Counted from the stretch's first letter, positions 8,952 through 49,236 are shown. The stretch: 64,000 bases of DNA from an uncultured Gemmatimonadales bacterium (GCA_963751925.1 CAVVWJ010000002.1:278292-342291); one strand, 5' to 3'. Notes: a model not told the origin generated them from the sequence alone. Translations and numbers: made by a program.

Positions 8952-8994
8952 CGCTCGGCACGACGACAAAGAAGACGCGGGAGAGGAGAGGTTT

Positions 8995-29717: not shown

Positions 29718-31604
29718 ATGGACCTGTCGAAGTACGTCGCTCTGTTCCTGGCAGAGAGCCGGGAGCACCTCGGCGCGTGCAATCAGTCTCTGCTGGCGTG
29801 GGAGCGTGACCCAGCTGCCGTCGAGCCGGTCGACCGGGTCTTCCGAGCCATCCACACGATCAAGGGGATGGCGGCCACGATGGGCTACTCGGGGCTGGCC
29901 CAACTGGCTCACCGCACCGAAAACCTGCTCGATGCACTGCGAAAAAGCCGAGTACCGGCCACACCCGCCGTCTTCCAGCTTCTCTTCCGGGCGATTGATA
30001 CGCTGGGCCGCGGGGTGGAAGAGGTGGCGACGGGAGCTGAGGGGGAAGCAGACCAGGAACTGATCGCGGAGCTCGACACCGCCTCAGCGCGACAGGTGGA
30101 TGCGGTGACGGTGACGGCGGTCCCAGGCGATTTGCCTGCCACTCCGCCAGTGCCGGCAGAGCCGCAGTTCCGGCGCGCCACCGACGCTCCCCGCACTCGC
30201 TCGGTACAGGTCGCCATCCGGACGGCGGCGGTCATGCGGGGTGCGCGAGCGGCGCTGGTGCTTCGCCGGGCCGAAGGTCTCGGGGTGGTGAGCGCAGTCC
30301 GCCCGCCGATCACCCAGCTGGAACGGGATGAGTTCGACGGCCGCTTTTCCTTTCGACTCTCGACTCGGGCCGAGGACGCGGCGGTCGAGGTCGAACTTCG
30401 CGCCGTGGGAGAGGTCGACTCGATTCAGTTCGATGCGACTGCAGCGGGCCCAGAGACGGTTCGTCGCGGCAGGCAGATCCGGGTGGACCTGGAGCGGCTC
30501 GACGCGCTGATGAAGCAGGTCGGAGAGCTCGTCGTCGCCAAGAACCGCCTCACCGTGCTGTCGGACGACTCGGCCGACCCGGTGCTCGGCGAACTCAGCG
30601 AGCGGATTTCGCGGCTCGTCTCCGCCATGCAGGCGGAGGTGCTCGCGGCGAGGATGACGCCGGTGGGCGAAGTATTCGAGCGGTTCCCCCGCTTGGCGCG
30701 GGACCTCTCTCGCGACCTCGGCAAGCGGATTCGCTTCGACATGGAAGGTGAGGAGATCGAGCTCGATCGCTCGATTCTGGATGAGATCGGTGAGCCGTTA
30801 CTCCATCTCATCCGGAATGCGGCCGACCACGGGATCGAGTCCCCAGACGAGCGGGCGGCCGCGGGCAAGCCCAGCGAAGGGCGCATCCTCCTCTCGGCGG
30901 CACGAGAGCGGAACACGGTAGCCATTCGCGTAGTGGACGATGGCCGCGGCATCGATCGAGAGAAGATCCTGGCCAAAGCCAGGCGTGAAGGCGCGGCGCC
31001 TGAAGCTGAGGCCCTGAGCGACGATCTCCTGGTCCGGGTCCTCGCCCGACCCGGGTTCAGCACCGCTGGCACGGTCAGCGGAGTCTCGGGCAGAGGCGTG
31101 GGCGTGGATGTGGTCATGACCCGGGTTCGAGCGCTCGGTGGGACCCTCGAGGTCCGGAGCGAGCTCGGCCGCGGCAGCACTTTCCTGATGCGGGTGCCCC
31201 TGACTCTCGCCATCGTCCGGGCCTTACTGGCCGAGGCGGGTGGCGAGCGCTACGCGCTGCCGCTGGCCTATGTGGCCGAGACGGTCGAGTTCGACCAGCG
31301 CGCGGTGACCTCGGTTCGTGAGCGCGAGGCGTTGGTGGTGCGGGATCAGGTGATCCCAACGGTTCATCTGCGGGATCTTGTCGCCTGCGGCTCGAATGTT
31401 GGGAGGGTGGGGAAGAGACCTACGGTGATTCTCGAGGTCGGAGAACGGCGAACCGCGCTGGTGGTCGACGCTTTGGTGGGGCAGCAGGACATCGTAGTCG
31501 AGCCGTTCGATGCTCCCCGTGGGCTCCCGGCCTTTGTGGGCGGGGCAACGATTCTGGCAGACGGCGCTCCCGCTCTCATACTGGACGCCGCGGCGCTCCT
31601 TTAG
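29718..31604 (+). CDS. cheA: chemotaxis histidine kinase CheA
   Basis: Hpt P1 domain FRAIHTIKGMAATMG, dimerisation region IRVDLERLDALMKQVGELV, HATPase motifs HLIRNAADHGIE / DDGRGID / GVSGRGVGVDVV, and a C-terminal CheW-like P5 domain. Confidence 0.95.
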   Translation: MDLSKYVALFLAESREHLGACNQSLLAWERDPAAVEPVDRVFRAIHTIKGMAATMGYSGLAQLAHRTENLLDALRKSRVPATPAVFQLLFRAIDTLGRGVEEVATGAEGEADQELIAELDTASARQVDAVTVTAVPGDLPATPPVPAEPQFRRATDAPRTRSVQVAIRTAAVMRGARAALVLRRAEGLGVVSAVRPPITQLERDEFDGRFSFRLSTRAEDAAVEVELRAVGEVDSIQFDATAAGPETVRRGRQIRVDLERLDALMKQVGELVVAKNRLTVLSDDSADPVLGELSERISRLVSAMQAEVLAARMTPVGEVFERFPRLARDLSRDLGKRIRFDMEGEEIELDRSILDEIGEPLLHLIRNAADHGIESPDERAAAGKPSEGRILLSAARERNTVAIRVVDDGRGIDREKILAKARREGAAPEAEALSDDLLVRVLARPGFSTAGTVSGVSGRGVGVDVVMTRVRALGGTLEVRSELGRGSTFLMRVPLTLAIVRALLAEAGGERYALPLAYVAETVEFDQRAVTSVREREALVVRDQVIPTVHLRDLVACGSNVGRVGKRPTVILEVGERRTALVVDALVGQQDIVVEPFDAPRGLPAFVGGATILADGAPALILDAAALL

Positions 31605-31613
31605 GAGGATGGC

Positions 31614-32234
31614 ATGGAAGACGTGCGTGACCTGAAGGACTCGCAGCTCGATGCCATCCGCGAGGTGGCCAATATCGGCGCCGGCCACGCCGCCACTGCG
31701 CTATCGCAAATGACCAATCGCACCATCATGATCACGGTGCCCCGCGTCAAAGTACGTCCCATCGAGGATGTCTGCGAGATGATCGGGAGCCGCGACGAGA
31801 TCATCGCCGCCGTCCTCATGCACATGATGGGCGATCTCACTGGCCGGGCGATGGTGTTGTTTCCCGAGGCCCAGGCGCGTACCATCTGCGACTTTCTCTT
31901 CCGGCGGGAACTGGGCACCACCAAGACATTCGATCCGATGGAGCAATCCGGCCTCAAGGAGGCCGGCAACATCCTGGCGAGCGCCTACCTGAACGCGCTG
32001 AGCGACTTCATGGGGATGATGCTGGTGCCCTCGGTGCCGAGCCTCGTCATCGATCTCAGTGGCGCGATCCTGACGACCGCAGCCCTCAACTTCGGGCACG
32101 ACAGAGATTACGCCTTTTGCGTCGAGACCTCCTTTCGGGTGGAGGGCTCGGCTCAACCACTCGGCGGCCACTTCCTGCTGTTGCCTGACGTCGCGTCCCT
32201 GCGCTCCATCTTCGACGCCATCCGCCTGCCCTAA
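31614..32234 (+). CDS. cheC: CheC-family CheY-P phosphatase
   Basis: Both E-x2-N-x22-P active-site motifs are intact: EVAN + 22 residues + P, and EAGN + 22 residues + P. AGGAGG lies upstream. Confidence 0.85.
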   Translation: MEDVRDLKDSQLDAIREVANIGAGHAATALSQMTNRTIMITVPRVKVRPIEDVCEMIGSRDEIIAAVLMHMMGDLTGRAMVLFPEAQARTICDFLFRRELGTTKTFDPMEQSGLKEAGNILASAYLNALSDFMGMMLVPSVPSLVIDLSGAILTTAALNFGHDRDYAFCVETSFRVEGSAQPLGGHFLLLPDVASLRSIFDAIRLP

Positions 32235-32237
32235 TCG

Positions 32238-34943
32238 ATGCCAGCCCCTGCGCTCTCCGAGCGCGATCTCACGGTGCTCCGCTCCTTCGCCCGTCGGATC
32301 GATCCTTCAGATGCCGGGGCCCACAACAACCTCGGCGTTCTCTATTACCAGAAGGGTCTGATCGAGGAGGCGATCGCTGAGTTCGCGCGGGCGCTCGAGC
32401 TCGATGCCAAGATGCAGGTGGCACAGACCAATCTCGAGATCGCCTATCGGGAGAGCGGACACTACGACCGGCGCATCGGCGATCTTCGGGATCAGGTTGC
32501 CCGCCTGCCGGGAGACCGAGCAGCACGCTGGGAGCTGGGTCGGGCGTACGCATCGCTTGGACGCCACGAGGAGGCGGTCGCTGAATTTCAGGCGCTGCTC
32601 TCCAATTACCCCGACGATGTTCCCGCTCTGCTGCAGCTGGGACTCGCCGAAAAGGCCCGAGGCCGGCTGGATGCGGCGAGCGATTGGCTGGCCCGAGCGT
32701 GCGAAAAAGATCCCGAAAGCCCGGTCCCGCGATTTCACCGCGGCGAGGTGCTGTACAACCGGGGCTTGAATGAGCTCGCGCTGGTCTCCCTCAAGGATGC
32801 CATCGCCCGGAACCCCGACTACGCCGAAGCGCATTATTTAATGGCGTTCGTCTACGGCGACCTGGGTCAGCACGAGGCGGCCCGCGCGGCGACCAAGCGG
32901 GCAGTGGCACTCAATCCGATGCTGGCGCGCGCGCAGGCGAATCTCGCGTTGGAGGGTGGCACCCTTCAGCGTCCCTCGCCGGAGCATGCCCGAAACGGCG
33001 GTTCGGCCGCAACGCCTGGTCCAGCGGTGCCGCAACCGGTAGCGGGCGCCCCGTTGGCGCACTACAACAACGGGACGACGCTTCGCCAGAAGGGGTTTCT
33101 CGAAGACGCGGTCAAAGAGTACCAGTCCGGCCTCGACCAGGGAGAAGATCGTCGGCTCAATCTTCAGGCGCTGGCCGAGGTACATCTTCTGCGGCGAGAT
33201 CTCCCGGCCTCGCTCGCGCTCTACGATGAGCTGGTGGGAGACTACCCGGATTCGCCCAAGCTTTGGAACGAGCGTGGGGTCTGCCTGCATCAGGCGGGAA
33301 ATCGGGAGGACGCCCTCGTCTCCTACGAGAAGGCCGTTGTAGCCGATCCCGCGTACAAGCTGGCATGGAACAATCTCGGCGTCCTGCGAGCCGGCGAGTT
33401 GTCAGGTGACGGTGCCGTTGCTGCGCTGCGATACGCCCTCGATGGCTCGCAGCCACTGTTCACGGCGCGTCTCAATCTGGCGCTGCTGTACCTGCAGCGC
33501 CGCCAGCATAAGGCCGCCCTCGAGGAGTACCAACGGGCCCTCACCGAGCAGCCATCCAGTGCGGTCGGGTGGAATGGTGTCGGCCTGGTGATGATGGAGC
33601 TCAAGCGCTACGAGGAGGCGCGGAACGCGTTCGGCCGTGCGGTCGACGCCGATGCCAACTTTGCGGCGGCGCATTACAACCTGAGCTTCATCCTGAGCCA
33701 GCTCGGGGACTTCGACGGAGCCCTGCGGGAAACCCGTCGGGCACTCGAGCTCGAGCCGCTGTACGTCCCGCAGAAGTTCGCCCTGGCGATCGACCTGCAG
33801 TACGAAGATCGCACCATTGCGATTGCGCCCGAGCTCGTGGCGGACGTCAGCGGGGACGAGCTTGCCGGCGAGTTCAACTACGATGCGCCTGCCCTCGATC
33901 AGCTGTTCGACGAGCTGGCACCGTCGCTGCCGCAGGAACCTGTCCCCGCGGACGACGATTCCCTGGACCTTGCCCGCGATCTCATTCGGAAGGGTCTGCT
34001 GGACGCTGCCGCGGCCGAGCTGGCGCGGACCTCCAGCCGCGCGGCCCCGCGCCCGGCCACCTCGGTCCTTCTGGGAGACATCTTCGCCAAGCGCGGCCTC
34101 TACGGCGAGGCGCTCGAGCGCTATCGGACGGCGCGCAGCATGGTGCCAGACGATCGGGATGCAACCCTGGGTGAGATCCGCGCACTGCTCTCCCTCGGCT
34201 GGGCTCCCGAGGCCCTCCCGTTGGCCGATGCCCTCGCCGCTCGCCTTGGCAAAGATGTCGATGTCCTGGCTGCTCGCGCCCGGGCGCGCATTGCGACTGG
34301 CGATGCTGCTGGGGCACTCGACTCCATTCGTCAGGCACAATCATTCGTCCCCGCCCGAGCTGATCTTCTCCACCTCCAGGCGCAGGCATCAGTTGGCCTG
34401 GGCGACCGGACCGCGGCGCTGGCGGCGTTCAACGCCGCGCTCCAGCTCGATCCTTCGCTGGTGCGGGTCTGGGTCGAGCTCGGCGCCCTGGAAGAGGACC
34501 GCCGCAATTGGACGGGCGCGCGTTCCGCCTACGAACGGGCCCTCGACCTGCTCCCAACCTTCGGTACTGCCGCCCTGGCACTGGCCGATCTGCTGCGCCG
34601 AACCGAGTCGCCCCGGGCCGCAGTGCCCGTTCTGGTTCGCCTGCTGGAAGCTGATCCGTACGAGCTGGAGGCATTGACCGCGCTGGGGCGCGCACTGCTC
34701 GAGGATGGGCGCACTGTCCAGGCGAGAGAGGCATTCGCCCGGGTGCTGCGCTTCGATCCCGATCATGCCGCCGCCCTGTACCACCAGGGCACCTGCTTCG
34801 CCCGGGAGCGGCAGTTCGAGGAAGCGGTCCAGGCCTGGGAGAGGGTAGTCGAGCTGGCTCCCGAAGGACCCTATGCCAGCGAGGCCCGCAGCCGCTCCCG
34901 CTCCGCCCGCGATCTGCAGCACATCTTCGCGACGGCGGGCTGA
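32238..34943 (+). CDS. 901-aa tetratricopeptide-repeat protein
   Basis: The whole length reads as consecutive TPR units (e.g. AHNNLGVLYYQKGLIEEAIAEFARALELD, AWNNLGVL..., AHYNLSFILSQLGDFDGALRETRRALELEP). No other domain is visible. Confidence 0.85.
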   Translation: MPAPALSERDLTVLRSFARRIDPSDAGAHNNLGVLYYQKGLIEEAIAEFARALELDAKMQVAQTNLEIAYRESGHYDRRIGDLRDQVARLPGDRAARWELGRAYASLGRHEEAVAEFQALLSNYPDDVPALLQLGLAEKARGRLDAASDWLARACEKDPESPVPRFHRGEVLYNRGLNELALVSLKDAIARNPDYAEAHYLMAFVYGDLGQHEAARAATKRAVALNPMLARAQANLALEGGTLQRPSPEHARNGGSAATPGPAVPQPVAGAPLAHYNNGTTLRQKGFLEDAVKEYQSGLDQGEDRRLNLQALAEVHLLRRDLPASLALYDELVGDYPDSPKLWNERGVCLHQAGNREDALVSYEKAVVADPAYKLAWNNLGVLRAGELSGDGAVAALRYALDGSQPLFTARLNLALLYLQRRQHKAALEEYQRALTEQPSSAVGWNGVGLVMMELKRYEEARNAFGRAVDADANFAAAHYNLSFILSQLGDFDGALRETRRALELEPLYVPQKFALAIDLQYEDRTIAIAPELVADVSGDELAGEFNYDAPALDQLFDELAPSLPQEPVPADDDSLDLARDLIRKGLLDAAAAELARTSSRAAPRPATSVLLGDIFAKRGLYGEALERYRTARSMVPDDRDATLGEIRALLSLGWAPEALPLADALAARLGKDVDVLAARARARIATGDAAGALDSIRQAQSFVPARADLLHLQAQASVGLGDRTAALAAFNAALQLDPSLVRVWVELGALEEDRRNWTGARSAYERALDLLPTFGTAALALADLLRRTESPRAAVPVLVRLLEADPYELEALTALGRALLEDGRTVQAREAFARVLRFDPDHAAALYHQGTCFARERQFEEAVQAWERVVELAPEGPYASEARSRSRSARDLQHIFATAG

Positions 34944-34946
34944 GCC

Positions 34947-35987
34947 ATGGCGCTCGAAGGGCCGCTCAAGGAGTTCCACATCCAGGATGTCTTTCAGCTC
35001 CTGGATCTGGGACGGAAAACCGGCGCGCTGCGAGTTACCTCGGAGCTTCGCCAGACCTCTGCGTCGGTGTCTTTCGAGCGAGGCGGCGTCGTCGCTGCCA
35101 CGCTGGGAAAAACGCCGCAGCGCATCGGGACTCGACTGGTGCGAATGGGGAAGCTCTCGGCCAAAGAGCTCGACCGCGCGTTGGGCCAGCAGGAGAAGGG
35201 CGACGCCCGCAAGCTGGGGGACATTCTCGTTGCTAACGGTGCGATCAGCCGGCGAGAGCTGGAACGTCAGCTCAAGGCCCAGGTCGAGGAGACCATCCTC
35301 GAGCTCCTCAGCTGGACCGAAGGCCACTTTCGCTTCGAGGAAGGGGCACCCTGCGAGGCGATCGTAGACGCGCCGGTGCGAATTGGGACCGAAGGGCTGC
35401 TGATGGAATCGGCTCGGCGGCATGACGAGTGGTCGAGGATCGAGGCGAAGGTGCCGCACCTCAAAGTCATCCCGCGGCTACCGCCGGCTGAGTCAATCTC
35501 CTGCGGCAAGCTCGATCTGGCCCCGTTCGAGTGGGAAGTGCTCGCGGCGGTGGACGGCCAGCGGGACCTGCATGCCCTCGCGGATATTCTGGGCCGGTCT
35601 GAGTTCGACGTGGCGAAGACGGTGTTTACGCTGGCGGCGGCGGGCGTGATCGTCCTCGACAACTCCAACGGAACCGCCGAGAACGGCCGCGACCACAGCG
35701 CGGTCCTCCGCCCGGCCCGTGAGGCTTTGGGTAAAAACGAATTCGAGAAGGCTGCCAAGATCCTCCAGGAAATCTTGCGGGCGGACCCTCTTATGCCCGA
35801 GGCCCGCCGTCTCTACGGCGTGTGCGAGGCGGCACTGGGCCGGTTCAGGAGGGCAGCAGAAACCTGGAAGAGTTGGGGCCGCCTCGGTACCCGCACGCCG
35901 GCCGAAGAAGGAATGTCGGCCGAAGTGGAACGTCTTCGGCAGGCAGCTGAAATTTTGGCGGAGGAGCTCGAGAGATACCGTGACTGA
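34947..35987 (+). CDS. PATAN/DUF4388-domain protein with helical insertion and C-terminal TPR-like tail
   Basis: The N-terminus MALEGPLKEFHIQDVFQLLDLGRKTGALRV is the DUF4388 signature. The inserted helical hairpin is MGKLSAKELDRALGQQEKGDARKLGDILVANGAISRRELERQL. Then ILELLSWTEGHFRFEEG. Confidence 0.75.
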   Translation: MALEGPLKEFHIQDVFQLLDLGRKTGALRVTSELRQTSASVSFERGGVVAATLGKTPQRIGTRLVRMGKLSAKELDRALGQQEKGDARKLGDILVANGAISRRELERQLKAQVEETILELLSWTEGHFRFEEGAPCEAIVDAPVRIGTEGLLMESARRHDEWSRIEAKVPHLKVIPRLPPAESISCGKLDLAPFEWEVLAAVDGQRDLHALADILGRSEFDVAKTVFTLAAAGVIVLDNSNGTAENGRDHSAVLRPAREALGKNEFEKAAKILQEILRADPLMPEARRLYGVCEAALGRFRRAAETWKSWGRLGTRTPAEEGMSAEVERLRQAAEILAEELERYRD

Positions 35988-36834
35988 TGACATCCGGATG
36001 TTGACTGCCCGTCTCGCAGACGAGCCCTCCAGTCTCGCCTTTCTCGAGCTGGGTGAAGCCTTGCGCCGCCGCGGTCAGCTCGAGGCGGCGTACAAAGTGG
36101 CGCGCGGCGGAGTCAGCCGATATCCCGGCCTCGCCGACGCGCACGATCTCATGGCTCGCATCCTGGGTGACCAGGGTGATTTGGCCGGCGCCTTCGATGC
36201 CTGGGCCGAGGCGCTCCGGTTCGACCCGATGCGGATCGGCGCACTCAAGGGAATCGGCTTCCTGTACTACCGGGCAGGAGACATCGCTGCGGCGCTCGAT
36301 CACCTCCATCGGGCTGCTGAGATCGATCCGGACGATCTATCGATCTCACAGGCAGTCGATCGAATCAGGAGCGCTGCGGAAACGCCGGCTGTGTCAGACA
36401 CGCCTGAGCCGGACGCCGCAGTTGAGGCCCCGGCCGTCGAGGAGGCGGGTGCACGGTCCGAGAACACCGCTTCATCGACGCCGGCATTCGGAGGCAATGA
36501 ACGGAGCGATCATGGCCTCATGCTGGTCGATGGCAATGGTCTTCGCCTGAGCGGCACCCTGCGAAGCCCCAGCAACGAGGATGTGGGAGACCGCGTTGCC
36601 GCGGAGCTTGCGGGTGTCTCCAAGGAAGCGTCACGGACGACGAAGCTGTTGGGGCTCGGTCCCTGGCAGGCGATCGCAGTTGAGTCGCCCGAAGGCAACC
36701 TGTTCATGGTCGCTCCCACTCAGGAGACCGTGCTGCTCACCCTGCGTGATCCCTCGTTGCCAATGGCGCGGCTGGGACTGATCGCCGAGCGGGCGGCGCA
36801 AGATGCCCGCACCTGGCTGGGGGCCCAGAAATGA
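35980..36834 (+). CDS. TPR - Roadblock/LC7 fusion protein
   Basis: N-terminal TPRs (AFLELGEALRRRGQLEAAYKVARGGVSRYP, AHDLMARILGDQGDLAGAFDAWAEALRFDP). An acidic linker follows. The C-terminal Roadblock-like fold is LMLVDGNGLRLSG...VAAELAGVSKEA...AIAVESPEGNLFMVAP...LLTLRDPSLPMARL. Start is GTG 35980 or ATG 35998. Confidence 0.7.
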   Translation: MTDDIRMLTARLADEPSSLAFLELGEALRRRGQLEAAYKVARGGVSRYPGLADAHDLMARILGDQGDLAGAFDAWAEALRFDPMRIGALKGIGFLYYRAGDIAAALDHLHRAAEIDPDDLSISQAVDRIRSAAETPAVSDTPEPDAAVEAPAVEEAGARSENTASSTPAFGGNERSDHGLMLVDGNGLRLSGTLRSPSNEDVGDRVAAELAGVSKEASRTTKLLGLGPWQAIAVESPEGNLFMVAPTQETVLLTLRDPSLPMARLGLIAERAAQDARTWLGAQK

Positions 36835-37178
36835 ACGGGGCCAATCTGGCGCTCGAGCGAGTCACCCGGGTTCCTGGAGTCCGCGGGTCACTCCTGATCT
36901 CCGCCGATGATGGACTCGTCGTGGCTGAACGCCTCATGGACGGGATCGATGGACGCGCGATTGCGGCGTTGGCGGCCAGCCTCGTCCAACGATTGGGTCG
37001 GGCGATCGGCGGAGCGGGAATGCGCGCCCCGACGTTTGTTCACCTTCGCGGCAATGCTGGCTCCGTGCTGGCTGCGCCCGGGCGCTATGATCTCGTCCTG
37101 GTGGCCCTGATGGCGCCCGATGCGAACCTGGGGCTCGCTCGGCTCGAGATGCTCGATGTGGTCGGTCACCTCGCCTGA
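36831..37178 (+). CDS. Roadblock/LC7 (MglB-like) protein
   Basis: LERVTRVPGVRGSLLISADDGLVVAE...DGRAIAALAASLVQRLGRA...FVHLRGNAGSVLAAPGRYDLVLVALMAPDANLG is the canonical Robl_LC7 pattern. ATGA overlap upstream. Confidence 0.8.
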   Translation: MNGANLALERVTRVPGVRGSLLISADDGLVVAERLMDGIDGRAIAALAASLVQRLGRAIGGAGMRAPTFVHLRGNAGSVLAAPGRYDLVLVALMAPDANLGLARLEMLDVVGHLA

Positions 37179-37639
37179 TGCGTGCGCTCGAGCCCTGGGT
37201 CGCCGGTCCGATGCAGACCTTCATCACAGAGTCCTCGGCCAGGCTGATCCTGTTGATGACGACCTCGGGCCAGGTGGTCGCGCAGCACGGGTTTTCCCGT
37301 TCGGTCGAAGTGATGACGGCAGCGGCCTTGGGCGCGGGGATCGTCGCCTCGACTGAGGAGCTGGCGCGGCTCATGGGGACATCGCGCTTTGGGGCCGTGG
37401 TGCACGGCGGTAGCCGGCAGAGCTGTATGCTCTCGGCCTTTGGCACCCCTCGCGGGCGATGGATCGGCTTGGTGGTTTTTGGCTCCGAAACATCGGTGGG
37501 AATCGTGCAGCTCTTCTTCGATCAGATGGTGGAGCAGTTGGTGACGGCGGCGCCTCGCGAACAATCAGTTGCGCCGGTGTTGGCGGAAAACTTCGAGCGC
37601 GAGCTCGATACCAGCCTCAAAGAGCTCTTCGGACGGTAA
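37178..37639 (+). CDS. divergent Roadblock/LC7-like protein with C-terminal helical extension
   Basis: [47 protein letters not shown]...[26 protein letters not shown] has the same alpha-beta-alpha layout as the neighbouring gene. TGATG junction. Confidence 0.6.
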
Positions 37640-37644
37640 CTGAT

Positions 37645-38247
37645 ATGTCTCTGGTCAACTTCACAGCGCGTGAGATCACCTGCAAGATCGTCTACTACGG
37701 TCCGGGACGGTCCGGCAAGACGACCAACCTGCAGTACGTCTATGGCCGCGTGCCCGAGGCACGACGTGGGCGTATGGTCTCGCTCGCAACCCAGACCGAT
37801 CGGACGCTCTTCTTCGATTTCCTTCCTTTGGAGCTGGGGACGATTTCCGGCTTCACCACCAAGTTCCAGCTCTACACCGTCCCTGGGCAGAGCTACTACA
37901 ACGCCACTCGCAAACTCGTGCTTCAGGGCGCCGATGGTGTCGTCTTTGTCGCCGATAGCCAGGCTCGGCGATTCGATGACAACCTCGAGAGCCTGCAGAA
38001 TCTTCAGGACAATCTTCTGGGGCAGGGTGTCGACGTACGGCAGCTGCCAATCGTGTTCCAATACAACAAACAGGATCTGCCTCGGGACTTGATCCTGGGG
38101 CAGGACGAGATGGATGATGCCCTGAATTTCCGCTCGGTGCAGAGCTATTCCGCAGATGCGCTGCACGGGAGCGGCGTCTTCGAGACCCTCAAGGGCGTGT
38201 CGGAGCTGGTGCTGAAGCGGCTGGCCGCGGGAGCCCAGGTGGCATGA
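37645..38247 (+). CDS. mglA: MglA-family Ras-like GTPase
   Basis: Near-collinear with Myxococcus MglA: [25 protein letters not shown] (P-loop), [12 protein letters not shown] (intrinsic Arg), YTVPGQ (catalytic Gln), [15 protein letters not shown] (NKxD). ATG 37645 is preferred over the 37459 extension. Confidence 0.92.
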
Positions 38248-40175
38248 CCGCCACGCTGAATCCCCTGTATCGGTTCGACACCCTGGTCGTAGGCGCGGCC
38301 AACCGTCTCGCGTTCACCGCGGCCAAGGCAGTGGCCGAATCACCGGGCACGATTTACAACCCGCTGTTCATCTACGCCCGCCCTGGTCTGGGAAAGACTC
38401 ACCTGCTCATGGGTATCGGGCACGCCGCTCGGGCGATCAACCCGCAGCTGTCGGTCGAGTACCTCACCCTGGACGAGTTTGTCGAGTCGTTTCATGCCGC
38501 GGTAGCGGCAGGGCAGGGTGAGGCGTATCGCCGGCGCTTCATCGACGTCGATCTCTTGCTGGTGGACGACGTGCAATTCCTCACTCACCGCCGCGAGATG
38601 CAGGCGGAGCTCCTACGCCTGAGTGACGCCCTGCAGACAGCAAACCGCCAGATCGTCCTCACCAGCGATCGTCCGCCCGCCGAGATCGAGGCGCTCGACG
38701 AGCGGTTGATCCGCCGCTTCGCCGGCGGGCTCGTCATCGACGTGGCGGCACCCGATTACGAAACCCGGGTTGCCATTCTTCGCCGGAAAGCGGAGGAGCG
38801 CCGGGCCAAGTTCGGGAACGGCGTTCTCGAGGCTGTCGCGTCGCTGACGATCGACAACGTGCGGGAGCTGCTGGGCGCCTTGAATCGGTTGGTCGCGTTT
38901 CAGGCGGTCAGTGACACGCCGCTGCAGCCCGCCCAGGCCCGTGCCCTCGCCGGCGGCTCGGATGCGCCGGAGACCGGGCCGGTAGAACCCGCCGCGGACG
39001 AATTCGGCGACTTCCTCTCCGAGGTCTCTGCCACCGTTGCCCAGCAGGTGGATTCGTGGAAGACGAAAGTCGCCGCGGCAATTCTCCGGTGGGAAGGTGA
39101 AGGATTCCAGATCACTCGGCTGGAGAGCCTGCTGCAGCAGGAGATGACTACCGACCCGGAGCAAGTGCTTCGTCAATTTGAAGCGGACATCCGCCGGCTT
39201 CAGGCGCTCCGGACCGAAGCGGCGGAGCTGGCACCGGATCTGGCGGGCTCCAACGCATACCGCGATCCGGATGATCTCGCCGGGGCCGAGGCACTGACTC
39301 AACGCGCCCGCGACGGGGCGCACCCGCCGCCGGCACCGTCTCCCCTGTGGCTGCTGGAAGACCTGGTCGAGGCACCGGGGAACCGCATGGCCTTGCAGGC
39401 CGCGCGGGCGGTTGTGGCGGAGCCAGGGGTGCGATACAACCCGCTCGTCATCGTGGGCGCCACCGGTGTCGGCAAGACCCACCTGCTTCATGCACTGGGC
39501 AACGAGCTCGCTGCCAAGCGAAACGGTCCCATCGCGTGTCTCAGTGCCCACGAATTCACCAGCGAGCTCATCGAAGCGATCGATCGCGATGCCATCGGCG
39601 CCTGGCGCGCGAGATATCGCACTGCCGTGGCCTTCCTGCTCGATGACGTGCACCTGGTGGGCGACAAGGATCGGACCCAGGACGAGCTCTTCGTGCTGTT
39701 CAACTGGCTGATGGAAGCCGGCCGCCAGATGATCTTCACGTCTGCCGTACCCCTGGCGGACATGGTGGGCGTCGAGGCGCGGTTGCGAACCCGTCTCGAG
39801 GGCGGATTGGTGGTCGATCTTCCGGCACCAGATCGGGATATTCGTCAGCATGTGATCGAGCGACTGCTCGATGGCAAGCTGCCCCAGCCTGACGTGGAGC
39901 TGATCAACTATCTCGGGTCTCGTCCCGCGGAATCGGTGCGAACCGTGCACGGCCTGGTACAGCGGGTCCTCGCGGCGGCCGAGACCCAGGGTGTCGCCGC
40001 CACCTCCGTGCTCGCGCGTGAAGTGCTCGAAGGCGCGGTGCCGCGCGCCGCGCGACGCACTCCGAACACCCGCTCGAGCGGCGTGGTGGCCCCTGCCAGC
40101 GGGGCCCGAAGCCGGGAAAAGATCGTGTGGGAATGGCCCGACGTCGGTGACCGCATCGTCGAGGAGTGGCGCTGA
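38244..40175 (+). CDS. tandem DnaA-type AAA+ ATPase (two domain-III copies, no domain I or IV)
   Basis: Copy 1: [78 protein letters not shown]. Copy 2: [72 protein letters not shown]. No DnaA-box-binding HTH is present. Confidence 0.85.
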
Positions 40176-41794
40176 TGGCGATCAAGGGCAGCCTCAAAGA
40201 GGCCAGTCTTCCTGACGTCATCCAGCTGCTCTTTCTGGGCCGGCGGACCGGATGCCTTGCCCTCGCCGATCAGCACAACTTCGGCACCATTTATCTGGAC
40301 GAGGGACAGATCGTCTACGCCTCGATCGTGAACCGCCGCGATCGTCTGGGTGACATTCTCCTGCGAAAGGGACGGATCAGCGCCGAGCAGCTGCAGCAGG
40401 CCATCGATGCGCAGGTCGACGACCGGCAGCACAAGCTCGGCGAGATTCTCGTCGGCCTGGGAGTACTGAGCCGGGAAGAGCTGGAGGAGTACATCCGCAT
40501 CCAGATCGAGGAAGCGGTTTACTACCTGTTCACCTGGTCTTCCGGGACCTTCAACTTCGAGGCCGGCGTTCGCCCCGAACGCGAGGATTTCCTGGTCCGG
40601 ATCAGTCCCGAAGCGCTCCTGCTCGAAGGGGCCCGCCGAGTGGACGAGTGGAGCCTGATCGAGAAAAAGATTCCGTCGCTCGATCTGATCTTCTCGGTGG
40701 ACCAGAAACACATCGGTGAATCGGCCCCCACGCTCTCGGCCGAGCAGCAGCGCCTGATGCCGCTGATCGATGGCACCCGCGACGTCCGCCAGATCATCGA
40801 GGAGTCGGGGATGGTCGAGTTCGAGGTCGGCAAGGCGTTGTTCGGCCTCATCACCGCCGGCTTTGCCCATCGGGTGGGAACCTCAGCCGGGGCGACTGCC
40901 CCCAAGGTCAACGACAGTCGGGTCGAAGAGCACCGGAATCTCGGGATCGCTTTCTATAAGGCCGGGATGCTGGAAGAGGCGCTGCGTGAATTCCGCCGCG
41001 TCACCGATCTTCGGCCGTCGGACAGCAGCGCTCCTTTGTTTCTCGGACTCATCGCCATCCGGCAGGCGCGTTGGGAAGATGCGGCCGAGGCGCTGCGGCA
41101 AGCTTCAGGTTCCGGGGTGCCCAGGCCGGCGGCGCTGCACAACCTCGGCTTTGCTCTCGAGCAGCTGGGCCGCCTGGATGAGGCCGAGGCTGCCTACGGC
41201 GACGCTGCCGGACGCTCCCGCGACGACGGCCGAATCATGCTGGGCTGGAGTATCGTGGCCCTGAAACGGGGAGACTACCAGGTCGCGCTTGGCCGGATGG
41301 CCCGGGCCCGCGAGCTGCTCAACGGACGTCCCACACCCGCCCTTTGGTACTGGGCCGCGACCTTGGCCAGTGCCGGGATCAACGATGCCGAAGGCGCTCT
41401 CCGCTCGGCGAAGGACGGTGTTGCCGCTTTCCCGAACAACGCGGTGCTGCAGAACAATCTGGCAGTGCTGCTCGAGCTGAATGGCGATCTCGAGGGCGCC
41501 GAATCGATGCTCCGAGCGGCGCTGGCTGAAGATCCGGCGCTACCCCAGGTCTCCAAGAATCTGGCCGACATCCTGTATCGGAACGGACGCTTTGACGAAG
41601 CGGGCGAGGCCTACGAGCGCGCGGCAAAACTCAATCCCGAACTGGGAGACGATCTCTACTTCAAGCTCGGCAACATCGCATACAAGCGGCGAGATCACGA
41701 TCGCGCGAGGGAAAGCTGGGCCCAGGCGACATCGCTCAACCCGGGACATCAGCTGGCCCGGGCAAATCTCGAGATGCTGGATCTCTCCCAGTGA
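40175..41794 (+). CDS. PATAN/DUF4388 - TPR protein (paralogue of 34947..35987)
   Basis: [30 protein letters not shown] aligns with the N-terminus of the paralogue. Helical insertion LRKGRISAEQLQQAIDAQVDDRQHKLGEILVGLGVLSREELEEYI, then YYLFTWSSGTFNFE. The C-terminal half is TPR. The ORF track start GTG 40166 is an alternative. Confidence 0.8.
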   Translation: MAIKGSLKEASLPDVIQLLFLGRRTGCLALADQHNFGTIYLDEGQIVYASIVNRRDRLGDILLRKGRISAEQLQQAIDAQVDDRQHKLGEILVGLGVLSREELEEYIRIQIEEAVYYLFTWSSGTFNFEAGVRPEREDFLVRISPEALLLEGARRVDEWSLIEKKIPSLDLIFSVDQKHIGESAPTLSAEQQRLMPLIDGTRDVRQIIEESGMVEFEVGKALFGLITAGFAHRVGTSAGATAPKVNDSRVEEHRNLGIAFYKAGMLEEALREFRRVTDLRPSDSSAPLFLGLIAIRQARWEDAAEALRQASGSGVPRPAALHNLGFALEQLGRLDEAEAAYGDAAGRSRDDGRIMLGWSIVALKRGDYQVALGRMARARELLNGRPTPALWYWAATLASAGINDAEGALRSAKDGVAAFPNNAVLQNNLAVLLELNGDLEGAESMLRAALAEDPALPQVSKNLADILYRNGRFDEAGEAYERAAKLNPELGDDLYFKLGNIAYKRRDHDRARESWAQATSLNPGHQLARANLEMLDLSQ

Positions 41795-42612
41795 CGCAGG
41801 GTGACGAGGCAGCCTTCATGGCGCTGACACGGAAGATCTCGCGTGAGGCCGGCCTCACGCTGCAGGACTACAAGGACAAGTGCCTCCGTCGGCGCATCGC
41901 CGTCCGGATGCGGGCCTGCGGCGTCCACACGTACCCCGACTACCAGCTGGTGCTTGACGCGAGTCCGGCGGAGTACCAACGGCTCAAGGACGCCCTCACG
42001 ATCAACGTGACCCGCTTCTATCGAAACGCTGATACCTGGAACCTTCTCCGGGCCGGTCTGCTGGATGAAGTCTTTCAGGCGGCACCCGGGCCGGTGAGCG
42101 CATGGAGCGCGGGATGTTCATCGGGCGAAGAGCCCTATACCCTCGCCGTCCTCATGGCGGATCTGGTCGACCGGCAGGGTCGTCCTGAGCGGCTCGGACT
42201 GGTGACAGTTGACGCCACCGATATCGATCGGCAGTGTCTCGAGCTGGCCAAGGCCGGCCGCTATAGCCGTGACGCCATCGCCGAGGTCCCACCCGAGCTG
42301 GTCGAGCGCTACTTCGAGGAGGATGGGGCAGGGTGCCGGGTCATCGACCGGGTGCGCCAGCGTGTGGTCGTGCGCGCCCTCGATCTGAGCTCTGACCCGC
42401 CTCCGCGGCTCAATTATCAGCTCATCCTCTGCCGGAATGTTGTCATTTACTTCGGACGCGCCGCGCAGGAGCGCGTGTTCCTGGCGTTTGCCGATGCGCT
42501 CGCTCCCGGCGGGCTTCTGGTACTGGGGAAGGTGGAGACACTCTTTGGAGCCGCTAGAGAACGCCTCACGCTGCTGGATCCGCGCGAGCGGGTGTATCGG
42601 CGGACCGCATGA
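41791..42612 (+). CDS. cheR: chemotaxis protein methyltransferase CheR
   Basis: LTINVTRFYRNADTW, SAM-binding AWSAGCSSGEEPYTLAVLM, and ILCRNVVIYF. Confidence 0.9.
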   Translation: MTQGDEAAFMALTRKISREAGLTLQDYKDKCLRRRIAVRMRACGVHTYPDYQLVLDASPAEYQRLKDALTINVTRFYRNADTWNLLRAGLLDEVFQAAPGPVSAWSAGCSSGEEPYTLAVLMADLVDRQGRPERLGLVTVDATDIDRQCLELAKAGRYSRDAIAEVPPELVERYFEEDGAGCRVIDRVRQRVVVRALDLSSDPPPRLNYQLILCRNVVIYFGRAAQERVFLAFADALAPGGLLVLGKVETLFGAARERLTLLDPRERVYRRTA

Positions 42613-43097
42613 GCGGACGAGAGCTCGTCGTGCGCGTGGCCGACCTGAGAATCGGCGTAGAGGATGACACTCTGGTCACGGTGGGCCTGGGAAGCTGCGT
42701 CGCCATCCTGCTCCACGATGCCACGGCTCGAGTGGGAGGATTAGCGCACGTTCTCCTGCCATCTCCGGCGCTGAGTCGGAGCGATGGGAACCTCGCCAAG
42801 TTCCCCCAATCAGCGGTGCCCCGCCTGCTCGAGCTGATGGCCGCCGACGGCGCCAGCCCACGGCGCATCACTGCCCGTCTCGCCGGTGGAGCGAGCATGT
42901 TCGCCGCACTCGCACCGCTCGGAACGATTCACATGGGTGAGCGAAATCTGGTGGCGGCACGACAGGTCTTGAGCTTGCACGGGATCCCTCTGTCTGGCGA
43001 AGCGGTCGGCGGTGACTTCGGCCGAACGGTGCGCATGCGGGTCTCGGACGGGCGAGTCGATGTGAGCACGGTGGCGCATGGTGTCCAGCAGCTCTGA
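42609..43097 (+). CDS. cheD: chemoreceptor glutamine deamidase CheD
   Basis: [14 protein letters not shown]...[16 protein letters not shown] and [11 protein letters not shown]. Confidence 0.9.
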
Positions 43098-44151
43098 CCC
43101 GAGCCGGGTCCTGGTGGTGGACGACAGCCCGTTCTTCCGCCGGCTCCTCACCGACGTGGTCGACGGCTCGGGCGAGTTCCGCGTCGTGGCCACCGCTCGC
43201 GATGGTATGGATGCGCTGCGGAAAGTCCGCGCCCACGCTCCCGACGTCATTCTCATGGACATCGAGATGCCCGAGCTCGATGGTCTGGGTGCCATCGGAT
43301 ACATCATGGCTGAGTCGCCTCGGCCGATCGTCGTTGTGAGCGCGCATGTGGGACCGGGAATGGCCGCCGCGATTCGGGCGCTCGAGCTCGGGGCAGTGGA
43401 TCTGGTAGCCAAGGAAGAGGAGCGCGGAGCGGCGGCGACGGCCCGATTCGCCGAGCGCCTGATGGCGGTGCTGCGCACGGCCCGTGCGGCGGAAATCCGG
43501 CGGCTCGACCGCCCTGAGCGCCGCGAGGGTGTGGTAGCGGCAGCAACATCACAGGCCACAGGACACGCTCGCCTCTGTGTCGCAATCGCGGCCTCCACCG
43601 GAGGACCACGTGCCCTCGCCGACATCGTTCCGCTCCTTCCGACCGGCTTCCAGGCTGGGGTGCTGATCGTTCAGCACATGCCACCGAAGTTCACCCACAG
43701 CTTGGCGGAGCGGTTGGCGTCGCAGAGCCGGATGAAGGTGGTGGAGGCACAAGATCAAATGTCGCTGGAGCCGGACACAGCCTACGTGGCCCCGGGAGAC
43801 TACCACATGCGGGTTGCCACCGACTCCGGTAGAACCCGGATCACTCTGGACCAGGAGCCCTCGGTGTGGGGAGTTCGACCCGCAGCTGATCCACTGTTCA
43901 GCAGCGTCGCCCGTTGTTTTGGGCCGCGTGCCGTCGGCGTAGTCCTCACCGGGATCGGGCGTGATGGCGCCCAAGGCTTGCGGCAGATTCACGATGCGGG
44001 TGGTGTGGGCATTGCCCAGGACCGTGCGACAGCGACGATCTATGGTATGCCTGCAGCCGCGCTCCACGCCGGAGGGGCCGACTACGTCCTGCCGGTGTCC
44101 GAGATCGCGGGTCAGGTCGCAGCCGAGTTGACCCGGCTGAGGAAGCTATGA
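43078..44151 (+). CDS. cheB: chemotaxis response regulator protein-glutamate methylesterase CheB
   Basis: Receiver domain [12 protein letters not shown]...[13 protein letters not shown]. Esterase domain [25 protein letters not shown] and IAQD. Confidence 0.93.
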
Positions 44152-44573
44152 GCAGCCGGGGTGGTGGCTTCCTGCTGGTCCGCACCGGAAGCCGGAGAGT
44201 CGGGTTGGAGCTATCGCATGTTGTTCAGGTTACCGAGATCGGAGCGGTTCACCCGGTGCCGGCCATCGATCCAGCGCTCCGGGGCATTGCCGCGGTTCAC
44301 GGCCGGATGGTTCCGGTGGTGCACCTCGGGGCATTGCTGGAGGCAAGGCCGTGCCCGCCACGGGAGGGAAACCTCGCGGTATTGATCGTGGTCGATGGCC
44401 GGCACATGTGCCTGGAGATAGACGAGGCGGAGATCGTGGTACGCCAGGCGCCGCTGCCGGTCCCTCCCGGGGCGACACTTCCCTGGGCTGTCGGGGTCGC
44501 CCGCCTTCCTGACGGGCTCGTCCCGTTGCTGGATCTGTCTCTAGTCAGCTCACGTTTTCTGGAGGCGGCATGA
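44148..44573 (+). CDS. CheW-like protein (divergent)
   Basis: [57 protein letters not shown] is a CheW-like pattern. ATGA junctions on both sides. Confidence 0.8.
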
Positions 44574-45040
44574 CGAGCGACGGCTCCGACGATATCCAGA
44601 TGGTCACCTTTCGGGTCGGCCGGCAGGAATTCGCGTTCGACATCCTGCAGGTCGAGCGTATCCTTCGCTACACCGTTCCCTCGCCGCTTCCGAAAGCCCC
44701 CCGCTTTCTCGAGGGAGTGATGCCGTATGGCGATGGTGCCATTCCGGTGATCGACTTACGGAAGCGCTTCGAGCTGGACGCGCCGATCAAAGAAGAAACC
44801 CGCCTGATGGTTCTGGAGCTGGAGGTCCAGCGGGTGGGCGTGCTGGTGGATGAGGTCAATGAGGTCATACGGGTCGACAGCACCACCATCACCGCTCCTG
44901 GGCGAGTCGTGAGCGGCCTCGCGGCCGAGTACATCGCCGGCATCATCAGCATGCCGGAGCGGACCATCATCATCCTCAACGCGCGGAAACTGCTCTCGTC
45001 CAACGAGCGCCTCGCCCTCACCGAGCTGGGAGCCGCGTAG
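44570..45040 (+). CDS. cheW: CheW coupling protein
   Basis: MVTFRVGRQEFAFDILQVERILRYTVPSPLPKAPRFLEGVMPYGDGAIPVIDLRKRF and VLVDEVNEVIRV. Confidence 0.85.
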   Translation: MTSDGSDDIQMVTFRVGRQEFAFDILQVERILRYTVPSPLPKAPRFLEGVMPYGDGAIPVIDLRKRFELDAPIKEETRLMVLELEVQRVGVLVDEVNEVIRVDSTTITAPGRVVSGLAAEYIAGIISMPERTIIILNARKLLSSNERLALTELGAA

Positions 45041-45913
45041 ATGAGCGATCCGTTGCTGGTGTCGCTTCGCACCCAGCTGCAGGAGATATCAAGCCGGGTG
45101 GACAGCCAGACTACTGCGCCCGAACGTGAGGCGGTGAAGCGGGAGATCATTGCCTTATTCAAGCGGGTGGACGGGGTCCTCACTGATCTCGGACAGATGA
45201 AGGAAGACATCCGGGGCTTGGTAGAGCGGTACAAGCAGTCGAACGGCGCCACAGAAACCGGACCGGCTCCCCAGTTTACCGGCGCGCGTCCCGCCGTCCA
45301 TGCCGACCATCTCGGCGCCTCCACCTACATCGAAAAAGGTTGGAGCCTGATCTCTCTCGGGGATTATGCGGGCGCGATCCAGGCGTTGGAAAAAGCCCTG
45401 ACCCTGTCGCCGGGAGCGGTACAGGCACAATCGCTGCTCGGCTGGGCCCAGATGCTACATGAAGACTACGATGACGCCTTGGGCAACTTCTCCAAGGTGC
45501 TGATGAAGGAGCCGGCCAACGCCCTGGCGCGCATCAACGTGGGGTACATCTGTCTGAAGAAGCGTATCTTTGGTGAGGCCATCGAACATCTCTCGAAGGC
45601 GATTCGGCTCGACAACGACCGCAAGGCCACGCTCTACGCCCATTACTATCTGGGTCTGGTCTATCTCGAGCGCGAGATGTATGAGGACGCGCAGACGTTC
45701 CTGCGGAAGACCCTGAAGCTCGGCCCCAATCTCATCGAGGCTTACTTTGAGTTGGGCCGGGCACTCTGGCTGATGGGCAATCGGGAAGAAGCAGTGCAAG
45801 TGTGGGGCGAAGGCTACAAAGCCAACAAATTCAATCCCTGGGCCAAACGGTGCCAAGAGATGCTCGAGGTAGCCAAGGCCGGAGGTGAGGTCCCGCGCAG
45901 TCCGCTCTCCTAG
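45041..45913 (+). CDS. coiled-coil + TPR protein, last gene of the cluster
   Basis: An N-terminal ~70-aa helical segment is followed by TPRs (GDYAGAIQALEKALTLSP, DYDDALGNFSKVLMKEP, AHYYLGLVYLEREMYEDAQTFLRKTLKLGP). ATG directly abuts the cheW stop. Confidence 0.8.
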   Translation: MSDPLLVSLRTQLQEISSRVDSQTTAPEREAVKREIIALFKRVDGVLTDLGQMKEDIRGLVERYKQSNGATETGPAPQFTGARPAVHADHLGASTYIEKGWSLISLGDYAGAIQALEKALTLSPGAVQAQSLLGWAQMLHEDYDDALGNFSKVLMKEPANALARINVGYICLKKRIFGEAIEHLSKAIRLDNDRKATLYAHYYLGLVYLEREMYEDAQTFLRKTLKLGPNLIEAYFELGRALWLMGNREEAVQVWGEGYKANKFNPWAKRCQEMLEVAKAGGEVPRSPLS

Positions 45914-45990: not shown

Positions 45991-46806
45991 GTGGTTGCGT
46001 GGCCGGCCCAGCTCAAGCTTGCCGTCGATTTAGCACAGCGGGCCGCCTCGCCGACTGAGTGGCCCGGCCTGGCAGCCCAAACTCCGGAGCCGCTCCAGCT
46101 CATTGTCGTGCCGAACGGGAAATATCTGGACTCTCTGTCGTCGGGGCGAGCACCCAATTGGAGCGCCGCTGTTGCCCTGCCCAACGCGCGCACCATTCTA
46201 CTTCGCGCGGACCGTGAGGAGCTGTACGGCACCCTCCGCCATGAGCTGGCTCATCTCGCCTTGCACCGCGCGGTGTCGGTGCGGGTGCCACTTTGGTTCG
46301 ACGAGGGCTACGCCTCGTGGGCCGCCGGTGAATGGGATCGCTCCGGACTCCTCGACCTCAACCTAGCGGTAGTACGAGGTGCGATCCCCGACCTGGAATC
46401 TCTCGACGGCGCACTGCGGGGCTCGGCCAGCACCGCCGATGCAGCGTATGCTTTAGCGATGTCCGCGGTCACGGAATTGGCCGCTCGCAATCCGGAGCAT
46501 TCGATCGGGCCGCTGCTCAAGCGATTGCAGTCTGGCGAGGACTTCGAGACCGCAGTTCGGGTGACGACTGGTCTCACGTTGGGACAGTTCGAGCGCGAAT
46601 GGCGACAGGTGGTCCGGCGCCGTTACAGCCTGGTTACCTGGGTTCTGGCCGGGGGTGGCTGGGGGTTGATCGCCCTTACCTTCTGGGCCCTCTCACGGCT
46701 TCGGAAGCGAGGCGACCGAGCCCGCCGTGCTGCCCTCGATCAGGGTTGGGTCATCGACCCGGAAAGCACAGCCACATCAGAACTTGACCGAACCCCGGAA
46801 CCATAG
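45991..46806 (+). CDS. MA-clan peptidase-like protein with C-terminal membrane anchor
   Basis: HExxH at RHELAHLALH, downstream WFDEGYASW (third-ligand Glu pattern), and C-terminal TM WVLAGGGWGLIALTFWAL. The start codon (GTG 45991) is uncertain. Confidence 0.65.
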   Translation: MVAWPAQLKLAVDLAQRAASPTEWPGLAAQTPEPLQLIVVPNGKYLDSLSSGRAPNWSAAVALPNARTILLRADREELYGTLRHELAHLALHRAVSVRVPLWFDEGYASWAAGEWDRSGLLDLNLAVVRGAIPDLESLDGALRGSASTADAAYALAMSAVTELAARNPEHSIGPLLKRLQSGEDFETAVRVTTGLTLGQFEREWRQVVRRRYSLVTWVLAGGGWGLIALTFWALSRLRKRGDRARRAALDQGWVIDPESTATSELDRTPEP

Positions 46807-47080: not shown

Positions 47081-47155
47081 GGGCGAATAGCTCAGCTGGT
47101 TCAGAGCGCCTGCCTTACACGCAGGATGTCGGGGGTTCGAATCCCTCTTCGCCCA
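47081..47155 (+). tRNA. tRNA-Val (anticodon TAC)
   Basis: Folded by hand: acceptor GGGCGAA/TTCGCCC, D-arm GCTC-AGCTGGTTCA-GAGC, anticodon arm CCTGC-CTTACAC-GCAGG, T-arm GGGGG-TTCGAAT-CCCTC, discriminator A. No encoded CCA. Confidence 0.93.
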
Positions 47156-47216
47156 CTCGCAGCGTCTCATGCGCTGTTCACTGGCCCGATGGGGCCGTCC
47201 TGTTTGGAGATCGAGA

Positions 47217-49095: not shown

Positions 49096-49170
49096 GGGGC
49101 TGTAGCTCAGCTTGGTTAGAGTGCCGCACTGTCACTGCGGAGGTCGCGGGTTCGAGCCCCGTCAGCCCCG
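49096..49170 (+). tRNA. tRNA-Asp (anticodon GTC)
   Basis: Acceptor GGGGCTG/CAGCCCC, D-arm GCTC-AGCTTGGTTA-GAGT, anticodon arm CCGCA-CTGTCAC-TGCGG, T-arm GCGGG-TTCGAGC-CCCGT, discriminator G. Confidence 0.93.
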
Positions 49171-49236
49171 CTCGCTCTTGGTTCAGGCACCCCGTCCAGT
49201 AGACGGGGTGTTGTGTTTCTGCCCATAGAACCGAGC

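Follow-up and report, generated by a model that had tools for sequence, protein, structure and literature searches.

In Bacillus subtilis and Thermotoga maritima, the genes that encode methyl-accepting chemotaxis proteins (MCPs) lie outside the che operon; in the Frz, Wsp and Chp systems, a receptor gene is part of the system's own cluster. PATAN-MglA gene neighbourhoods were reportedly noted by Makarova in 2006. Neighbourhoods that also include MglB are known, among them 'PATAN>MglA>-PATAN>' at GAU_1409 of Gemmatimonas aurantiaca (Wuichet and Sogaard-Andersen 2014, PMC4316618 Table S2), and the supplementary tables of that paper hold no CheA or CheW entry. Here we describe an operon in which a chemotaxis-type (Che) core encloses such a module. 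It lies in a 64,000-nucleotide (nt) stretch of DNA, one strand read 5' to 3', from a Gemmatimonadales bacterium; we refer to the whole stretch as the window. A 3.25-kb block at 41791-45040, flagged in an earlier note for adaptation and coupling genes with no receptor gene in the cluster, corresponds to the distal Che genes of a longer array on the + strand.

The array comprises 18 + strand genes between 28875 and 45913. It starts with CheW-CheY-CheA-CheC and ends with CheR-CheD-CheB-CheW-CheW-TPR, while its middle part encodes MglA, MglB, two more roadblock proteins, PATAN/TPR proteins and a tandem DnaA-like ATPase. Because the genes from CheW1 to TPR290 overlap or are separated by at most 36 nt throughout, their spacing indicates co-transcription as a single, tightly packed 18-gene operon. 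The predicted products are:

28875-29315, + strand: CheW1, coupling protein, first gene of the operon (Pfam CheW, E value 3e-22; the start is the Met of MANSPALH)
29352-29714, + strand: CheY, single-domain response regulator of the Thermotoga/Bacillus type (Pfam REC, E 1e-30)
29718-31604, + strand: CheA histidine kinase with complete P1-P5 (Pfam Hpt, P2, H-kinase_dim, HATPase_c and CheW)
31614-32234, + strand: CheC, phosphatase of phosphorylated CheY (CheY-P) (Pfam CheC in two stretches, E 4e-22)
32238-34943, + strand: TPR901, a 901-amino-acid (aa) protein made up of tetratricopeptide repeats (TPR) (Pfam TPR families, up to 12 stretches)
34947-35987, + strand: PATAN(DUF4388)-TPR protein with a MshEN-type motif for cyclic di-GMP (c-di-GMP) (Pfam DUF4388, E 7e-31)
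35998-36834, + strand: TPR and Roadblock/LC7 protein (Pfam TPR_2 and Robl_LC7; start refined from sequence)
36831-37178, + strand: Roadblock/LC7 protein (Pfam Robl_LC7, E 3e-10; PDB 7f8m, E 1e-5)
37178-37639, + strand: MglB-like Roadblock protein (Myxococcus xanthus MglB, PDB 6h5b_B, E 4e-10)
37645-38247, + strand: MglA small GTPase (M. xanthus MglA in PDB, E 6e-73, full length, 58% identity)
38244-40175, + strand: tandem DnaA-like protein with two DnaA domain-III (AAA+) modules (Pfam Bac_DnaA twice, NCBIfam DnaA/Hda, PDB DnaA E 3e-56)
40166-41794, + strand: double-PATAN-TPR protein with tandem MshEN-type c-di-GMP motifs (Pfam DUF4388 twice and TPR)
41791-42612, + strand: CheR methyltransferase (Pfam CheR_N and CheR, E 9e-46)
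42609-43097, + strand: CheD deamidase (Pfam, E 3e-23; T. maritima CheD, PDB 2f9z, E 6e-22)
43078-44151, + strand: CheB methylesterase with receiver (Pfam REC and CheB_methylest, E 2e-65; ASTGGPRAL present)
44148-44573, + strand: CheW2, coupling protein (Pfam CheW, E 2e-16)
44570-45040, + strand: CheW3, canonical coupling protein (Pfam CheW, E 5e-32; PDB CheW, E 5e-19)
45041-45913, + strand: TPR290, with a helical N-terminus of ~85 aa followed by a TPR domain (Pfam TPR), the last tightly packed gene of the operon

The B. subtilis/T. maritima pathway, class F1 of Wuichet and Zhulin, shares with this locus CheA with P1-P5, CheW, CheY, CheC, CheD, CheB and CheR as well as the location of receptors outside the che operon. 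Here, however, three CheW proteins are encoded, CheV is lacking, flagellar genes are not adjacent, and eight MglA/MglB, roadblock, PATAN/TPR and tandem DnaA-like genes interrupt the operon. The Frz pathway of M. xanthus, which acts on the MglA/MglB switch, offers the likeness of a Che pathway together with MglA (58% identical) and MglB, several CheW-like proteins and TPR proteins. In Myxococcus, frz and mglBA are unlinked, whereas both kinds of genes lie in one operon here; the cytoplasmic receptor FrzCD of the frz cluster, the CheA-receiver fusion FrzE and the CheR-TPR protein FrzF have no counterpart by Pfam, and CheC and CheD are present in addition. GAU_1409 comes from the same phylum and has the same local order of PATAN, MglA, one gene and PATAN, but the gene between MglA and the second PATAN is given only as '-' in Table S2, where the window has the tandem DnaA-like gene. 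In contrast to the PATAN-MglA neighbourhoods, the operon also contains MglB and two more roadblock genes. Finally, the cyanobacterial Tax/Pix phototaxis systems link Che-type kinases to PATAN proteins governing a polar motility apparatus (bioRxiv 10.1101/2021.06.11.447907); these clusters encode a PATAN-REC fusion and an MCP-like photoreceptor, while here PATAN is joined to TPR, CheY is separate and there is no receptor. The unusual part of the locus is the polarity GTPase module (MglA/MglB, PATAN and TPR proteins and the double DnaA-like ATPase) inside a chemotaxis-type operon.

We consider it likely that the operon encodes a canonical MCP-dependent pathway whose receptor genes are unlinked, and that its output feeds the embedded MglA/MglB-PATAN-TPR module. 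Unlinked MCPs would associate with CheA and the three CheW proteins; CheR would methylate, CheD deamidate and CheB demethylate these receptors. CheA would phosphorylate CheY, which CheC would reset, and CheY-P would act on the embedded MglA/MglB switch via the PATAN/TPR scaffolds and possibly also on the flagellar switch, with c-di-GMP as a likely second input.

All Che proteins look canonical: across ~55-65 orthologues, the catalytic residues show no or almost no variation. In CheY, D9, D10, D54 and K104 are invariant, as is His46 of CheA, which solved CheA structures in the PDB match over its full length (E 7e-87). Both D/S-x3-E-x2-N-x22-P phosphatase motifs can be read in the CheC sequence. 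The S-adenosylmethionine (SAM)-site residues of CheR (64 sequences) and S173, H200 and D296 of CheB (60 sequences) are invariant, and T24, C30 and H47 of CheD are kept in at least 61 of 63 sequences. Median identities to the window are 76% for CheW1 (53 orthologues), 73% for CheD, 71% for CheB, 70% for CheA and 65% for CheR. CheW2 is the least conserved Che protein (54%) and is absent from four more distant Gemmatimonadota loci (L073, L074, L077 and L078), which have only two CheW genes. Together, Pfam and PDB matches account for an F1-type set of components: CheA with P1-P5, CheW, CheY, CheB, CheR, CheC and CheD. The core resembles the Bacillus/Thermotoga (F1-like) type, an assignment made by similarity, because CheY shares 65% identity with T. 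maritima CheY over 118 aa (E 1e-50), CheC and CheD are present, and the best matches to CheA in a plasmid collection are CheA proteins of Bacillaceae. The CheA matches in this collection come only from Firmicutes and Proteobacteria, with none from Gemmatirosa. These data bear out the statements of the earlier note that cheR, cheD and cheB are intact (Pfam matches, ASTGGPRAL in CheB, conserved SAM-site and deamidase residues) and that two extra cheW genes follow cheB (Pfam), with a third upstream at 28875-29315; the start it gave for the latter, 28878, is off by one codon.

The note had also reported no MCP, HAMP or transmembrane features in the 18 proteins, and we reach the same result by Pfam, by tblastn with a positive control and by a membrane-segment scan. 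Pfam finds no MCPsignal or HAMP domain and no flagellar gene among ~60 large open reading frames (ORFs) of the entire window, and none of the 18 operon proteins has a convincing transmembrane segment. For tblastn, MCP hairpin and Tsr signalling-domain queries were validated in two ways: they retrieved annotated MCPs of several phyla from the plasmid collection, and they matched a Rhodothermus MCP at E values of 1e-27 to 1e-34. This full-length MCP was used as a query as well. The searches yielded nothing in the window and in 80 orthologous genome loci (best E 0.03) and no match in 13 more distant loci, in total 1.57 Mb of sequence (window and 93 loci). The 80 loci are all from Gemmatimonadota, mostly metagenome-assembled genomes of Gemmatimonadales, and the sequence covered for each extends 10 kb beyond the cluster at both ends. 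A search for homologous proteins gave near relatives only, at 81-96% identity. All full-length loci share one and the same gene order from rluD to mraW, and in no locus is there an insertion of at least 400 nt without a counterpart in the window, except in the gap between the Peptidase_MA_2 and TPR/FlgO genes, where the window has tRNA-Val. The operon is maintained gene by gene in these Gemmatimonadales soil bacteria, and given this perfect synteny the absence of a receptor gene is a stable property of the lineage and not an assembly accident.

On its own, a missing receptor gene is ordinary. Vibrio cholerae has 43 receptor genes spread over both chromosomes, and most of the receptors are attributed to the flagellar pathway of cluster II/F6, whose cluster does not encode them; most receptors of F7 and F9 are encoded in their own clusters (PMC7534058). 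Since all receptor-handling enzymes of the operon look canonical, we infer that the genes for its receptors most likely lie elsewhere in the genome. An apparently related cluster of Gemmatimonas phototrophica AP64 points in the same direction. In the part of the supplementary annotation of PMC9862903 used here, this cluster (~1873383-1889101 of NZ_CP011454.1) includes CheW (RS07755), a response regulator (RS07760), a DUF4388 protein (RS07780), a GTPase (RS07785) and CheB (RS07805). At least three MCP genes (RS00390, RS03220 and RS16675) are found at 0.09, 0.74 and 3.95 Mb, far from the cluster at 1.87-1.89 Mb (PMC9862903, same portion), and orphan receptors therefore exist in the phylum. Judging from annotation only, Gemmatimonas (the G. 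phototrophica cluster; GAU_1409 and GAU_1115 of G. aurantiaca) apparently has a shorter variant in which PATAN is directly followed by MglA, with no roadblock or MglB gene annotated there and a mglBA pair elsewhere.

The GTPase encoded in the middle of the operon is identified by its sequence as a true MglA, with a MglB homologue just before it. A PGxxGKT P-loop and a TVPGQ switch II can be read in the alignment, and the median identity is 92% (74 orthologues); CheY reaches the same value, which places both well above the other operon genes. The MglB-like protein, presumed to be the GTPase-activating protein of MglA, matches NCBIfam MglB at E 1e-8, far below the family (equivalog) cut-off. Its median identity to the window is 79%, as are those of CheC and the double-PATAN-TPR protein. 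In both PATAN proteins, an α-helical insertion in the PATAN domain matches the tandem MshEN-type c-di-GMP motif, a tandem 24-residue RLGxx(L/V/I)2xxG(L/V/I)2xxxxLxxxLxxQ. NCBIfam NF053729, with a cut-off of 38 bits, scores 41.6 bits for the PATAN-TPR protein (34947-35987), whose second motif is present in 58 of 62 orthologues, and 47.6 bits for the double-PATAN-TPR protein, whose two motifs persist in 51 and 64 of 66 orthologues. These motifs suggest a predicted c-di-GMP input to the module.

The tandem DnaA-like protein retains Walker A and B motifs in both halves. It has no DnaA domains I or IV and no Bac_DnaA_C match (Pfam, NCBIfam, PDB), and fits neither the definition of DnaA (domains III and IV) nor that of Hda (domain III and a clamp-binding motif). 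It belongs to a distinct tandem family, for which an exhaustive profile-free search returned many full-length relatives of 33-50% identity. Over all architectures, this protein and the PATAN-domain protein encoded beside it are the most constant members of the locus; TPR901 adjoins CheC in every architecture that has CheC. TPR290 has a median identity of 81%, and most columns of its TPR domain are at least 95% identical (56 orthologues), making this domain more conserved than CheA, CheB or CheR; such near-invariance implies a very constrained, putative partner surface. The N-terminal coiled coil of TPR290 was considered as an MCP-like hairpin and rejected: it spans only ~85 residues and contains no consensus site, and the protein is also found where Che genes are missing.

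The full-length relatives of the tandem DnaA-like protein led to deeper loci with other gene sets, in addition to four further distant contigs that are too short to be informative:

L082 and L083 (DnaA-like protein 36% identical): CheY, CheC, TPR, PATAN-TPR, TPR-Roadblock, Roadblock, MglB, MglA, DnaA-like, double-PATAN-TPR and TPR290, without CheW, CheA, CheR, CheD and CheB
L087 (~40%): gene order as in L082/L083, on a short contig that begins at CheY and stops just past TPR290
L093 and L094 (~40%): no more than DnaA-like, double-PATAN-TPR and TPR290, immediately following rluD
L085 (~35%; GC content 49%): CheW, CheY, CheA, an ATPase, a CheW-like protein, CheC, TPR, PATAN and DnaA-like, without adaptation enzymes and without MglA
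L089 (~45%): upstream half of the window type

The nested architectures of L082/L083, L087, L093 and L094 occupy the same chromosomal site between rluD and mraW as the operon of the window, and the gene set of L085 sits in a different context. In L082, the ileS and mraW products share 54% and 58% identity with their counterparts in the window, and the expected positions of the Che genes hold only 20-73 nt, with no gene remnants. The flagged block is thus exactly one presence/absence unit. The seven receptor-contacting proteins (CheA, all CheW proteins, CheR, CheD and CheB) come and go together, whether by gain or by loss, and form one separable module because they are absent together while CheY, CheC and the MglA/PATAN/TPR/DnaA-like set remain; among the Che proteins, it is CheY and CheC that go with the GTPase module. 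Since the repeat proteins are present at the same site in deep relatives without CheR, CheD, CheB, CheA and CheW, they belong to an older MglA/PATAN/DnaA-like module. As TPR290 and the double-PATAN-TPR protein are present even where no Che gene is, we infer that the most plausible place of the helical-repeat proteins is downstream of CheY-P and not upstream of CheA. L085 suggests that the linkage of CheA/CheW to the DnaA-like/PATAN/TPR module is old.

Several points weigh against unlinked receptors and a CheY-P-driven GTPase module. No MCP was seen for any operon-bearing genome, the source included, in the sequence covered, which is the cluster with 10 kb on either side. The G. phototrophica evidence is the annotation of part of a table, and its cluster is a variant. 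Dedicated non-flagellar pathways usually have a receptor gene in their cluster, so that its absence in all 93 loci is mildly unusual if the pathway is non-flagellar. The F1-like class follows from similarity, not from published class models, and the coupling of CheY-P to MglA is proposed from gene linkage only.

Flagellar F1 systems typically include CheC and CheD, and CheY here shares 65% identity with the flagellar CheY from T. maritima. The Che genes may therefore serve plain flagellar chemotaxis, with the MglA/PATAN module as an uncoupled neighbour and CheY-P acting on the flagellar switch only. Gemmatimonas species are indeed flagellated (PMC9862903). However, the Che genes stand on both sides of the GTPase module in one operon with overlapping stop and start codons, an order kept in all 80 genome loci. 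Moreover, CheY and CheC remain beside the MglA module in loci that lack CheA, CheW, CheR, CheB and CheD, and in G. phototrophica it is a second CheA (RS15835) that is reported to be specifically upregulated by calcium, a condition that also activates flagellar genes (PMC9862903). We therefore regard a purely flagellar role as unlikely, although it is the strongest competitor of a pathway that signals to the GTPase module.

The earlier note had left two explanations for the missing receptor gene. The first, receptors encoded elsewhere, fits everything found and is probable for the source genome. The second, a helical-repeat protein of the cluster as substrate of the adaptation enzymes, found no support: none of 20 cluster proteins matches either methylation consensus, [ASTG]2-x2-[EQ]2-x2-[ASTG]2 or [EQ]2-x2-A-[ST], for which 0.7 and 1.0 matches are expected by chance. 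In such a scheme, TPR901, TPR290 or a PATAN-TPR protein would take the place of the receptor, interact with CheW and CheA-P5 and serve as substrate for CheR, CheB and CheD. The lack of an MCP within 10 kb in any of the 93 loci and the position of the extremely conserved TPR290 directly 3' of CheW3 would fit, as would distant L085, where CheA, CheW, CheY and CheC lie beside TPR, PATAN and DnaA-like genes and no MCP. Yet L085 has its TPR and PATAN genes without adaptation enzymes; TPR290 and the double-PATAN-TPR protein are found where all Che genes are missing (L093, L094), and TPR901 and the PATAN-TPR protein without CheA, CheW, CheR, CheB and CheD (L082, L087). CheR, CheB, CheD, CheW and P5 are all canonical, and the helical regions of the cluster proteins that remain unassigned are all too short for an MCP-type bundle. 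Replacement of the receptor by a repeat protein is hence very improbable. We give equally little credence to the wider scheme in which TPR, PATAN and DnaA-like proteins control the CheA/CheW core without MCPs and one of them is modified by CheR, CheB and CheD; if true, it would amount to a chemosensory array with non-MCP input kept over long evolutionary time, as L085 would indicate. The MglA/MglB pair and the c-di-GMP motifs, which the note had not recognised, give the repeat proteins a more ordinary role.

That the adaptation and extra CheW genes are decaying relics of a receptor-less pathway, as the lack of a nearby receptor and the poorly conserved CheW2 (median 54%, missing in four loci) might suggest, can be dismissed as the least probable reading, since CheR, CheD and CheB have median identities of 65-73%, no frameshifts and invariant or near-invariant catalytic residues in 60-64 orthologues, and lineages without these genes lack them cleanly, with no pseudogenes.

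What may matter is the composite operon, which physically brings together a Thermotoga/Bacillus-type Che core, an MglA/MglB switch, predicted c-di-GMP-binding PATAN proteins and a tandem DnaA-like ATPase. We found no description of this composite cluster in the searchable literature, and it appears to be undescribed. The gene-for-gene conservation of the operon and the median identity of 92% for both CheY and MglA suggest that another phylum has a hard-wired equivalent of the Che-to-MglA wiring of Myxococcus, in which the genes are unlinked. The nested architectures at one site amount to a natural experiment that separates the Che parts of an output module (CheY, CheC) from those of a receptor module (CheA, CheW, CheR, CheD, CheB), and cultured Gemmatimonas species make this split testable.

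The operon is flanked by housekeeping genes on both sides. Upstream are ileS, a dksA-like gene, lspA and rluD (27998-28885), whose stop codon is overlapped by the start of the first CheW gene (28875). Because of this overlap, the chemosensory operon may be co-transcribed with ileS, the dksA-like gene, lspA and rluD. Two features follow TPR290:

45991-46806, + strand: Peptidase_MA_2 protein with HExxH (Pfam, E 5e-13), 77 nt past TPR290 and syntenic in all loci
47081-47156, + strand: tRNA-Val(TAC) (Rfam, 72.8 bits; ARAGORN), the downstream boundary of the operon

The Peptidase_MA_2 gene is a syntenic neighbour, possibly co-transcribed with the operon, and a terminator-like hairpin lies at 47182-47197, 3' of tRNA-Val. 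Further downstream are a gene for a secreted TPR/FlgO protein, tRNA-Asp and the mraW...ftsA division cluster. tRNA-Val(TAC) and tRNA-Asp(GTC; 49096-49171) flank the TPR/FlgO gene, and a terminator-like hairpin follows each of them. For the TPR/FlgO gene and for mraW, the starts of the longest ORFs (47169 and 49213) probably lie too far upstream. Besides the division cluster just 3' of the operon region, the window carries a DivIVA gene at 22410-22928. At 7012-9756, the three activities of LigD (primase-polymerase, ATP-dependent ligase and 3'-phosphoesterase) are split over three adjacent, separate genes.

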